Made by a program: the position numbers and the translations under genes. Below, piece after piece: positions 22,574-24,484 of a stretch of 64,000 bases of DNA (position 1 is its first letter; each line of letters opens with the position of its first letter). The stretch is from the NCBI GenBank assembly GCA_012813795.1, contig GCA_012813795.1_4087.1; one strand, given 5' to 3'. The DNA comes from a phage. The notes under the pieces were generated by a model, which did no database searches, was not told the DNA's origin, and worked only from the letters and a program-made list of their open reading frames with translations.

Positions 22574-22738
22574 TCATCGGTGCACGATATGCATCAGTAC
22601 TTCTTCGTCTAGTTCAGTACTTAAGAATGCTTTGTACATGCACTTAACACGTATAACATCCCACATTCTAGAATCTAATGGTAGATAATAAGGATTCCAC
22701 TTTAATTTCTGGAGTTTCAGCCATTCTTCATGTGTCAT
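22574..22738 (-). CDS. MTHEEW small-protein family member (54 aa)
   Basis: My translation gives MTHEEWLKLQKLKWNPYY...; ATGA overlap with upstream member; below track cutoff. Confidence 0.5.
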   Translation of the reverse strand: MTHEEWLKLQKLKWNPYYLPLDSRMWDVIRVKCMYKAFLSTELDEEVLMHIVHR

Positions 22739-22899
22739 ATTCGTACCATTATTTCAATAAAGAACCACTGATACGCTTCATGGTTTACAAGTTTATCGTA
22801 TTCTGCTGGGTCAGATAAGATTACCCAATGATATTTTCGCCAATTACCTATACCCGAATATCTAAAATTAATATCATTCATCCATTCTTCATGTGTCAT
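22735..22899 (-). CDS. MTHEEW small-protein family member (54 aa)
   Basis: Track ORF 22735..22929 trimmed to MTHEEWMNDINFRYSG; ATGA overlaps on both sides. Confidence 0.55.
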   Translation of the reverse strand: MTHEEWMNDINFRYSGIGNWRKYHWVILSDPAEYDKLVNHEAYQWFFIEIMVRI

Positions 22900-23063
22900 G
22901 AGCGTATCATTAACTCCATTACAAACCATGTATAATAGCCATTCAACACATACATTTGAAGCTTTTCTGGTGTACTAATATACTCCCAGTGGTATGTTCT
23001 ACATATACCATCAACACCACTATATCTTTCTTTTAGATCGTTGATCCATTCTTCATGTGTCAT
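22896..23063 (-). CDS. MTHEEW small-protein family member (55 aa)
   Basis: My translation gives MTHEEWINDLKERYSGVDG...; below track cutoff. Confidence 0.5.
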   Translation of the reverse strand: MTHEEWINDLKERYSGVDGICRTYHWEYISTPEKLQMYVLNGYYTWFVMELMIRS

Positions 23064-23084
23064 GGTTTAACCTTTAATTAAAAT

Positions 23085-23166
23085 TGGCCCAGGCGACAGG
23101 ACTCGAACCTGCATACTCCAGTTACTCGATTAACGACGGTTTAGAAGACCGTTGAGATACGCCCGG
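23085..23166 (-). tRNA. atypical tRNA-like RNA (Arg UCU-type anticodon arm, no recognisable D-arm), CCA encoded
   Basis: Acceptor CCGGGCG/CGCCTGG, T-arm GCAGG-TTCGAGT-CCTGT, arm ACGGT-CTTCTAA-ACCGT placed only 7 nt after the acceptor, then a 23-nt spacer. Confidence 0.45.
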
Positions 23167-23170
23167 ATGT

Positions 23171-23260
23171 TGGCGGTGAAGGTGAGATTCGAACTCACGG
23201 AGGACTTTCACCCTCGCTAGTTTTCAAGACTAGTGCATTAAACCGCTCTGCCACTTCACC
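23171..23260 (-). tRNA. tRNA-Ser (UGA), type II, CCA encoded
   Basis: Acceptor GGTGAAG/CTTCACC, anticodon loop CTTGAAA, long variable arm, T-loop TTCGAAT, G73. Confidence 0.85.
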
Positions 23261-23270
23261 AGTACTAATA

Positions 23271-23299
23271 ATTATATCACATCTTTTTGAGTTGTCCAA
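23271..23299 (-). promoter_or_regulatory. sigma-70-type promoter for tRNA-Ser
   Basis: TTGGAC-N17-TATAAT; predicted start about 4 nt before the tRNA 5' end at 23260. Confidence 0.6.
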
Positions 23300-23309
23300 G
23301 ATTTTTTGA

Positions 23310-23379
23310 AGCGGCATTTCGAAATCGAATCGAACAGCAGTGGAAATCGGAAGTTTCACCTCGCACCTTGCGATGCCGC
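23310..23379 (-). tRNA. tRNA-Gly (UCC)-like with degenerate D-arm (possible pseudo-tRNA)
   Basis: Acceptor GCGGCAT/ATGCCGC, U73, perfect T-arm TTCGA-TTCGATT-TCGAA, anticodon loop CTTCCGA on a 4-bp stem; only about 13 nt left for a D-arm. Confidence 0.5.
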
Positions 23380-23397
23380 ATAGTACTATTTATCTTG

Positions 23398-23574
23398 TTA
23401 TTTTTTGTCTCTAACCGCAAGCTCAAAGATGATCCAGTGATTACTGTTTTCATCTAGTACACTACATGCGAACTTACATTTATTGCGTAAAATATCGTAA
23501 TGTCCATCAATAATACCATTACCAAATCGATCATATTTATTCTTTAATAGATTAAGCCATTCTTCATGTGTCAT
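23398..23574 (-). CDS. MTHEEW small-protein family member (58 aa)
   Basis: My translation gives MTHEEWLNLLKNKYDRFGNGIIDGHYDIL...; ATGA overlap with 23571..24074. Confidence 0.5.
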   Translation of the reverse strand: MTHEEWLNLLKNKYDRFGNGIIDGHYDILRNKCKFACSVLDENSNHWIIFELAVRDKK

Positions 23575-24074
23575 TTACGTTGCATCCAATGTGAGCCAGT
23601 CCATACTTTTTTCTTTTCACGTTCTATCTGTCGTTTTTTTAATTCTTCATCCCACAGGATATTGTCATTCAAGAAATAGTCATATAGTTCTTTTAATTTC
23701 AAATTATCAGAAAATGCGGGAAAGTACTTATTATCGCATACCAAGCTCTCTTGGAAATGTGCATCTTCATCTGTGATGTATCGATATGTAAAAATTCTAT
23801 TCGGGTTTGGATAGATACCATTTGTTTCAGAGAAACATTTTCTAAGTAGACTTTTACCAAAATCACAGATAATAGTGTCTTTACGAACAAAATTCCAGCG
23901 AGTAACCATTGTAATTGTTAGAGTTTGATAATTCTGATCTAAGCTTATTCGATGTTCACCATCTTTGTGCTTATAGTGATAAGTGCCCTGTTTTCGAACT
24001 GTTCGTTCAAACTCATTAATATTAATTTTACTTAAAATTTCAGTAATACTTTCCGGTACATGCGTAATGAGCAT
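23571..24074 (-). CDS. EEYFQ-motif paralog family member (divergent, 167 aa)
   Basis: ITDEDAHFQESLVCDN. Confidence 0.5.
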   Translation of the reverse strand: MLITHVPESITEILSKININEFERTVRKQGTYHYKHKDGEHRISLDQNYQTLTITMVTRWNFVRKDTIICDFGKSLLRKCFSETNGIYPNPNRIFTYRYITDEDAHFQESLVCDNKYFPAFSDNLKLKELYDYFLNDNILWDEELKKRQIEREKKKVWTGSHWMQRK

Positions 24075-24119
24075 TATTGATCTCCTGTTTAAAACAAAAG
24101 AATAGCATATATATCAGTA

Positions 24120-24302
24120 CTAGTCAATTTTTTTACCTCTAACCGCAAGCTCATAGATGAACCAGCGATTACTATCCTCATCCAAGACAAATGATTTGAA
24201 CTTGTTCTTATCTTTTAAAATATCATAATGACCCTGGCGTACACCAAAGCCAAAATGATCATGTTTGAATTTTAATTCATCTAACCATTCTTGATGTGTC
24301 AT
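24120..24302 (-). CDS. MTHEEW small-protein family member (60 aa)
   Basis: Track ORF trimmed to MTHQEWLDELKFKHDHFGFG; ATGA overlap upstream. Confidence 0.55.
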   Translation of the reverse strand: MTHQEWLDELKFKHDHFGFGVRQGHYDILKDKNKFKSFVLDEDSNRWFIYELAVRGKKID

Positions 24303-24484
24303 GTGTAACATCCAGTTGTTCGTGCTATAGCGTACATAGTCCCATAGCAATCATAATAGCTAATGATCGAATTGAAATAATCATCACTATCACGTAAAAT
24401 ACTTCCAAGACCACCGAATGCGAAGAAGAAAATATCATTTTCATACAGTTTATCGTTTCTTTTATGCCATTCATCTAGTGTCAT
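24299..24484 (-). CDS. MTHEEW-family relative (61 aa)
   Basis: Begins MTLDEWHKRNDKLY. Confidence 0.5.
   Translation of the reverse strand: MTLDEWHKRNDKLYENDIFFFAFGGLGSILRDSDDYFNSIISYYDCYGTMYAIARTTGCYT

Follow-up and report, generated by a model that had tools for sequence, protein, structure and literature searches.

A lineage-specific family of very small, predicted four-helix proteins encoded in tandem around tRNA genes of an Asteriusvirus-type jumbo phage

Poxvirus accordions, such as that of K3L, consist of recent, near-identical gene copies selected for dosage, and polymorphic toxin systems carry tandem arrays of paralogous immunity genes. Recombination of the toxin cassettes of the latter is described by Zhang et al. 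2012 (PMC3482391). For T4-type phages, Arbiol et al. 2010 (PMC2839356) and Comeau et al. 2014 (PMC4122927) describe hyperplastic regions in which modules are shuffled through PeSLs, that is, intergenic promoter plus stem-loop cassettes which form composite promoter-terminator motifs (PMC4122927). In this study we analyzed six small open reading frames (ORFs) at positions 22574-24484 of a 64-kb stretch of phage DNA with a G+C content of 34.5% (64,000 nt, hereafter the window, whose numbering is used throughout). A 3.2-kb query covering this region matched jumbo myoviruses of the genus Asteriusvirus, the nearest relative being Escherichia phage A4 (97.3% identity over 78% of the query), followed by PBECO4, 121Q, phAPEC6 and about 40 other Escherichia and Salmonella phages. 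Sequence comparison and structure prediction suggest that the ORFs encode very small (50-61 amino acids, aa), soluble proteins of four short helices, which make up a lineage-specific multigene family of Asteriusvirus-type jumbo phages. The genes fall in a family that had been catalogued before (PHROG 10970/31562, function unknown) and the novelty is modest; what is added here is a predicted orphan four-helix fold, a self-explanatory cassette junction and unexpectedly large arrays in uncultured relatives.

All six ORFs named in the original prediction were found on the minus strand, each at precisely the coordinates given there, with lengths of 54, 54, 55, 58, 60 and 61 aa, and six-frame translation of the window gave no further occurrence of their M-T-[HL]-[EQD]-E-W start. 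Read along that strand they are ORF6 (24299..24484; 61 aa, MTLDEW), member E (24120..24302; 60 aa, MTHQEW), member F (23398..23574; 58 aa, MTHEEW) and, beyond a pair of tRNA genes, the tandem block formed by members D (22896..23063; 55 aa), B (22735..22899; 54 aa) and A (22574..22738; 54 aa), A occupying the final and best-conserved slot. Each start carries the shared repeat of about 18 nt that had been noticed, CCATTCTTCATGTGTCAT on the plus strand, which is the reverse complement of ATG ACA CAT GAA GAA TGG; this 18-mer occurs four times exactly, once with one mismatch and once with three, always at one of the six starts, and shuffled sequences gave 0.26 occurrences on average, with none of 100 shuffles reaching six. 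Five starts had been thought to be embedded in ATGA overlaps with the preceding stop, but only four are: those of E (24302, on the stop of ORF6), F (23574), B (22899, on the stop of D) and A (22738, on the stop of B), as the start at 24484 lies 1 nt past a TAA and that at 23063 comes after a tRNA. The downstream pattern [KR]-[YH]..G.G..H[YW]..I.. followed by ..E[LI].VR holds in B, D, F and E, is loose in A and is absent from ORF6. Three of the ORFs (54, 55 and 58 aa) do stay under a 60-aa cut-off when the longest start is taken, but the genes cannot be called mostly missed, as the related GenBank phages all annotate them as hypothetical proteins; the same or nearly the same sequences are on record for A4, PBECO4, 121Q, phAPEC6 and others, and member E is 100% identical to an A4 protein.

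A family profile and a search of phage databases, both suggested earlier, placed five of the six in one catalogued family. Members A, B, D, F and E matched phrog_10970 end to end (profile positions 1-55/56) with E values of 1e-24, 1.6e-26, 6.5e-15, 1.2e-24 and 1.6e-28, respectively, PHROG 10970 being annotated as function unknown. An independent hidden Markov model (HMM), built from 37 family sequences, recovered exactly these five in the 64-kb window with E values of 1e-22 to 1e-26 (1.2e-26 for member E). As judged by these profiles the five are clear paralogs, which share 20-64% aa identity within the window (about 33% between D and B). ORF6 matched phrog_31562 (E 1.2e-5); it gave no match to phrog_10970 and was missed by the family HMM at E<=0.01 and by an iterated HMM at 1e-3, and profile-profile comparison with the main family (hhalign) returned 33% probability and an E value of 4.7e-4, colinear over 55 columns. 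Its homologs in PBECO4, 121Q and other phages start M(QPK)TFDEW, and that of PBECO4 was recovered by the iterated HMM at E 3.9e-4. The gene L011_6167 (6167-6334 of the metagenomic array contig L011, see below) matched the ORF6-type profile (98.7% probability, E 1.5e-16) and also the MTHEEW HMM built without it (E 5.9e-6). Since this gene bridges both profiles, we assign ORF6 to the same superfamily, as a remote branch whose most divergent member would be the copy of the window. This wider MT-x-x-E-W superfamily (PHROG 10970, PHROG 31562 and array members) is joined by transitive profile links and has in common the length, the N-terminal motif and a C-terminal [FI]-[AS]-I-A; in PHROGs the two groups are kept as separate families, without function or structure, whereas here they are joined through array intermediates. 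Searches of the family against Pfam, NCBIfam, PADLOC and PDB sequence profiles gave nothing meaningful, and no described anti-defence or defence-associated family matched it by sequence or by fold. YxiJ, Ly49 and a P68 tail fibre (E 0.79) came up as candidate homologs, and these weak matches were judged to be noise.

The reading frames themselves are conserved, where the original prediction had considered that the DNA repeat alone might be. In nine related phages frames, lengths and starts are kept, the sole exception being a disrupted copy in the 'UNVERIFIED' CMSTMSU record, and the ratio of nonsynonymous to synonymous polymorphism (pN/pS, Nei-Gojobori) was 0.40, 0.44, 0.28 and 0.50 in four ortholog groups, with 0.28 for the A orthologs. 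These ratios indicate purifying selection, though fairly relaxed, and, together with the structural model, they speak for the six ORFs as genuine protein-coding genes. Furthermore, the suggested AlphaFold modelling of the monomer gave a confident four-helix model. With the alignment of 37 sequences, AlphaFold2 folded member F at a mean predicted local distance difference test score (pLDDT) of 92.2 and a predicted template modelling score (pTM) of 0.70, with helices at residues 3-14, 23-30, 32-40 and 47-54; with an alignment of 20 sequences the pLDDT was 70.6. A Foldseek search of the PDB with the latter model found nothing, and the model of pLDDT 92.2 had no relative in the PDB or BFVD. Among 49 distinct members the low-entropy columns (M1, T2, H3, E5, W6, L/M7, Y14, W/Y26, I/L29, K32, Y/F35, L/I52, A53 and R55) are spaced like the hydrophobic face of helices, and positions 8-9, 12, 16-24, 33-34, 36-37 and 41-47 exceed about 3 bits; the alignment thus shows a conserved scaffold in which most remaining positions are hypervariable. 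The proteins have isoelectric points (pI) of 4.5-6.9, contain 17-26% aromatic residues plus His and are hydrophilic overall (grand average of hydropathy, GRAVY, -0.3 to -0.9). Two biochemical roles were considered and rejected: an N-terminal X-X-His metal site resembling the amino-terminal copper and nickel (ATCUN) type, since residue 3 is K, Y or F in 8 of the 49 distinct members and a second ligand is not conserved, and DNA mimicry, the proteins being only mildly acidic.

The family is confined to one phage lineage, in which it can become very large. A word-indexed search of 5.8 billion proteins gave 21 family clusters, and an exhaustive HMMER search of 1.84 billion representatives gave 28 clusters at E<=0.001, nearly all of 54-60 aa and starting MTH-EW. 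Among isolates, only Escherichia and Salmonella phages of Asteriusvirus carry the family, each locus holding 4-5 members that the HMM detects; tblastn searches with distant members brought up no isolate from beyond this genus, P0044 giving no match at all, and a search for related loci in IMG/VR with a narrower family alignment returned the 121Q genome only. Two metagenomic contigs hold far longer runs. L011 (13.6 kb, Logan SRR30815946) carries 20 consecutive ORFs of 50-79 aa at 6001-9417, 13 of them with HMM support, followed about 300 nt downstream by tRNA-Leu(taa) and then by tRNAs for Gly, Ser, Met and Asn. L017 (78 kb, Logan ERR4503900_124) has 25 tandem ORFs of the same size range at 7167-11644 (18 with HMM support), with tRNA-Leu(taa) about 285 nt downstream and then Gly, Ser, Arg and Met. 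The ORFs of both arrays are mostly spaced by -4 to +2 nt. Synteny with the window extends to the tRNAs, a homing-endonuclease-type gene, a 70-71-aa gene of the 24486-24701 type (the homologous 71-aa gene lies about 1.5 kb upstream of the L011 array) and, in L017, a DUF1353 gene. For a phage, 20 and 25 genes are unusually long tandem runs of small paralogs.

The comparison of copy number among relatives, suggested earlier, showed that the tandem block downstream of the tRNA pair differs in both number and content of its slots. It reads D-B-A in the window, B-C-A in 121Q, Turkey3, ph0011, Ecwhy_1 and BF17, B-A in A4 and PBECO4, and C-A in ELP-22, that is, 2-3 copies in isolates as against 20-25 in the arrays of uncultured relatives. 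Cassette D is not present in the nine related GenBank phages compared at the locus, and only the metagenomic protein P0002 matches it closely; it is the one additional unit of 164 nt that the window has over A4, PBECO4 and ELP-22. When window and A4 were aligned, the flanking alignments overlapped by 33 nt within the start-motif repeat (88.7% identity on one side and 98.8% on the other), an equivalent pattern with a 27-nt overlap was obtained with ELP-22, and a 20-nt sliding comparison gave 90-100% identity at the junctions and values down to 30-70% in the cassette bodies. The cassette breakpoints thus lie inside a junction repeat of 27-33 nt, and the recombination at the start repeat which the original prediction had proposed is borne out. 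Read from the alignments, the mosaic pattern is the one left by recombination (homologous or unequal) or slippage at the junction, old and divergent cassettes being exchanged. Being only about 33% identical to B, D is not a fresh duplicate; it may have been gained by the window or lost elsewhere. Since every unit opens with the same 18-33 nt or so, homologous or unequal recombination there adds, removes and swaps whole cassettes, and this accounts for the 2-3 copies per block in isolates and the 20-25 in uncultured relatives.

The same stretch that serves as junction encodes the conserved N-terminus of the protein. In relatives the motif uses ACG, CAC and GAG besides ACA, CAT and GAA; the distant arrays use ACT and ACC as well and have other residues at positions 3-5, M1, T2 and W6 being kept; M-T-x-x-E-W is retained in them with differing nucleotides (e.g. 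ATGACTCATGAAGATTGG and ATGACCAAAGAAGAATGG). As its codons vary synonymously, the constraint acts on the peptide and not, as had been implied, on the DNA repeat as such; the codon comparison shows the M-T-H-x-E-W N-terminus to be a protein feature, not a DNA signal. Helix-capping rules provide for an S/T-x-x-E capping box and for a hydrophobic staple between residues N' and N4. By these rules MTHEEW would form the start of helix 1, with Thr2 as N-cap, Glu5 as the capping-box residue and Met1 and Trp6 as the staple, and the start of helix 1 at residue 3 of the model agrees with Thr2 as N-cap.

With regard to expression, the D-B-A block lies downstream of a strong sigma-70-like promoter sequence on the minus strand (23298-23271 from the start of -35 to the end of -10, as for all promoters given here; TGGACA-16-TATAAT, 11/12, TG-extended). 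This sequence is conserved in relatives, and its presumed promoter role would serve the tRNA pair just downstream of it as well. The pair confirms that the family flanks a tRNA cluster: between F and D lie, on the minus strand, tRNA-Ser(tga) (23171..23260; called by ARAGORN, Rfam tRNA 60.5 bits) and a tRNA-Leu(taa)-like gene (23088..23166; Rfam tRNA 32.6 bits against a gathering threshold of 29, not called by ARAGORN) which ends 24 nt before the start of D and whose sequence is identical to the aligned region of 121Q annotated as gene 124, tRNA-Leu(taa). Another minus-strand sigma-70-like sequence, at 22563-22536 (TTGACT-16-TATAAT, 11/12), starts 11 nt past the stop of A and by its position marks a putative end of the transcription unit. 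D has AAAGG 7-11 nt upstream of its ATG. No Shine-Dalgarno sequence was found at the overlapped starts, and B, A, E and F probably depend for this reason on termination-reinitiation. We infer that the promoter at 23298-23271 probably drives a common transcript of tRNA-Ser, tRNA-Leu and the D-B-A block early in infection, and that the downstream copies are probably translated by termination-reinitiation.

What would such an array do? We propose, as a working mechanism, that each paralog is a small protein which, in stoichiometric amounts, binds or inhibits a factor of the host, or of a competing element, and that the array forms a repertoire for host takeover or counter-defence. Host-factor binders are suggested by the combination of a tiny soluble single domain, a conserved core with a variable remainder, an early-type context, divergent paralogs of fast turnover and restriction to one lineage. 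The structural and evolutionary part of this explanation we hold with strong confidence; the functional step is tentative, and the explanation taken as a whole is, on balance, the probable one. A bolder version would make the family a hypervariable repertoire of miniature four-helix inhibitors, each directed against a different defence effector or toxin, possibly including tRNA-targeting nucleases as the linkage to the phage tRNA cluster is constant. The capping-box start, fused to the stop before it, would then double as a recombination site for the exchange of cassettes between co-infecting jumbo phages, and the family would amount to an 'immunity cassette array' on the side of the phage, its fold being new. 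This version is speculative and we regard it as unlikely.

Several observations weigh against the explanation proposed here and have to be set beside its rivals. ORF6 belongs to the superfamily by transitive links only. The promoter-like sequences, which are matches to consensus only, number 26 in total against 27.2 expected, not above chance, for which reason only the top sites count as meaningful. In the literature on Asteriusvirus, 121Q, PBECO4 and phAPEC6 we found no mention of the family, of its expression or of paralog arrays in the tRNA region. Finally, all 18 nt are the same in the four MTHEEW copies of the window (P ~0.005 given the codon usage of the phage), and ACT, the commonest Thr codon of the phage (41%), is used in 0 of 46 Asteriusvirus copies, all of which have ACA or ACG; some homogenisation at the nucleotide level within Asteriusvirus is therefore likely, and constraint or gene conversion at the junction may play a part. 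This last point, along with the coincidence of indel and mosaic breakpoints with the repeat and the TGA stops which the motif provides in both other frames (ATGAcacATGA), would fit a repeat selected as a cis element, whether as a recombination hot spot, as a site bound by a regulator or, in translation, as an operator or a site of reinitiation, with largely incidental ORFs. However, the frames are maintained at 20-30% aa identity with the pN/pS ratios given above, the confident fold prediction is driven by co-variation across the 37 sequences, recurring hydrophobic positions are conserved along the whole protein and the distant arrays keep the motif as its nucleotides vary, all of which makes this alternative very improbable. 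Amplification of a single effector for dosage, a 'genomic accordion' as in poxvirus K3L with selection on copy number, was one of the readings originally offered. It can point to tandem blocks of two or three copies among close relatives and to the 20-25 copies in uncultured ones, but the copies are old and divergent and not near-identical recent duplicates: identities within the window range from 20 to 64%, most copies of the big arrays visibly differ, distinct groups of orthologs can be followed from phage to phage, and D resembles its very neighbour B at only about 33%. Copy divergence largely refutes this reading, which we consider hardly credible.

Two further rivals concern function. The paralogs might be subunits of one hetero-oligomeric assembly, made in fixed ratios by translational coupling; the tight ATGA coupling of adjacent paralogs and the small helical fold with its conserved hydrophobic face agree with this. 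However, slot content varies among close relatives, and arrays of 5 to 25 genes fit a defined complex poorly. Moreover, the main text of the mass-spectrometry study of phAPEC6 virions does not name the homologs of that phage (gp94-96 and gp99-101). Such an assembly is decidedly improbable. On the other hand, tRNA genes lie among the members in the window and in every relative examined, the 20- and 25-gene arrays run up to a tRNA-Leu/Gly/Ser cluster, and one promoter appears to serve tRNA-Ser, tRNA-Leu and the D-B-A block. A tRNA-linked function, either as maturation or modification cofactors like T4 Cef or as inhibitors of anticodon nucleases and tRNA-targeting toxins within a tRNA protection island, might be read from this. 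Yet the proteins are neutral to acidic and lack RNA-binding features and conserved catalytic-type residues, profile searches, in which the Cef sequence itself was not directly compared, gave no PHROG or Pfam link to Cef or a tRNA enzyme, neither E nor ORF6 adjoins a tRNA in the window, and the adjacency may reflect a common variable region that also gathers homing endonucleases and orphan ORFs. This possibility we consider improbable, and stoichiometric binding of host factors is kept as the working mechanism.

The neighbourhood of the family is variable as well. Between E and F stands an ORF of 167 aa (23571..24074, minus strand; phrog_22160, function unknown), whose stop overlaps the start of F in an ATGA; it is found in A4, Turkey3, ph0011 and Ecwhy_1 and is not present in PBECO4, 121Q and ELP-22, and, as it has no match in Pfam, NCBIfam or the PDB, the idea that it is a recognisable mobile nuclease was dropped. 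PBECO4, 121Q and ELP-22 have in addition a tRNA-Gly and another member, G. A gene of 71 aa (24486..24701, minus strand; phrog_25670) directly precedes ORF6 in the window and member G in PBECO4 and 121Q. The segment 24467-24599, which covers the 3' end of this gene and the first 18 nt of ORF6, is 80-83% similar to positions 5257-5389 and 5775-5863 of the PBECO4 sequence (L002), both of which stand directly upstream of a family member; this likeness suggests a repeated two-gene module or the remnant of one. Between the DUF1353 gene and the 71-aa gene lies a strong terminator-like hairpin (24723-24746, minus strand; 10 pairs, then T7) built from two AGTACT copies. The palindrome AGTACT, especially as CAGTACTG, is massively over-represented in the window (e.g. 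at 22543, 22596, 22616, 23261, 24116, 24496, 24726 and 24738): CAGTACT gives 143 matches on both strands against 7.0 +/- 2.9 in shuffles, and the 146 AGTACT sites are found in coding and intergenic DNA alike, with a flanking consensus of only C(-1) and G(+6). This excess is the opposite of restriction-site avoidance. As a promoter element of the family genes AGTACT was rejected, no flanking consensus being found.

Two other sigma-70-like promoter sequences on the minus strand, at 25782-25754 (12/12 consensus) and at 21102-21074 (near-consensus), lie outside the family. A repeat of 22-38 nt, TTGACTAAATAGTTCAGTACTGTATAAT, stands on the minus strand at 21081-21102, 21673-21710 and 22534-22571, upstream of successive small genes, and the promoter sequences at 22563-22536 and 21102-21074 belong to it. 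The repeat, whose -35 and -10 boxes are near-perfect and are spaced by a stretch containing AGTACTG, is probably an early-promoter cassette of the phage. Among the tRNA genes, the slot of tRNA-Leu(taa) is filled in ph0011 by a different sequence annotated as tRNA-Arg. At 20972-21063 the window encodes, as does 121Q, a tRNA-Ser with the anticodon ACT (A34), in place of which the metagenomic relatives L011, L013 and L017 carry tRNA-Ser(gct) in their clusters. A tRNA adenosine deaminase encoded by the phage has been described in the paper on the related phage Sharanji, and an enzyme of this type could act on A34. Adjoining the tRNA-Ser is a homing-endonuclease gene (NUMOD4 + HNH_3, 21124-21648), present in the window, Turkey3 and ph0011 and not in A4, 121Q and PBECO4; this patchy presence makes a mobile insertion probable. 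The arrays of L011 and L017 are also flanked by related endonuclease genes (NUMOD4/HNH and T5orf172).

Most genes of jumbo phages are small orphans, few of which have a defined structure or evolutionary logic. The family described here offers several handles for study, namely a predicted fold without known relative, a pattern of scaffold and variable surface, a simple cassette junction and arrays of up to 25 genes. If its members are indeed inhibitors of host factors or defences, the arrays would amount to a ready-made library of very small binders, and a reason for their travelling with phage tRNAs would be supplied; if they are not, the family would simply join the other lineage-specific paralog families that variable regions of phages typically contain.

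Compared with the PeSLs of T4-type phages, the locus is similar in that its small genes, of unknown function and set in a variable region of early type, are bordered by short conserved repeats and in that the breakpoints of indels and replacements between close relatives fall in the repeated motif. It is unlike them in that the repeat of the family is coding, its first six codons being fused to the previous stop, in that tandem copies overlap by 4 nt of coding sequence and have neither intergenic DNA nor a promoter or hairpin between them, and in that the shuffled genes are mutual paralogs. With the immunity-gene arrays of polymorphic toxin systems it shares, by analogy only, many small divergent paralogs, a conserved scaffold with a variable surface and recombination of cassettes; it differs in having no associated toxin gene, in residing in a lytic phage genome, in its smaller proteins (about 55 aa) and in showing no similarity of sequence or fold to Imm/SUKH-type families. 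With the poxvirus accordion it has in common the copy-number variation of a tandem small gene in a large double-stranded DNA virus, but its copies, 20-64% identical, are held in stable ortholog groups.

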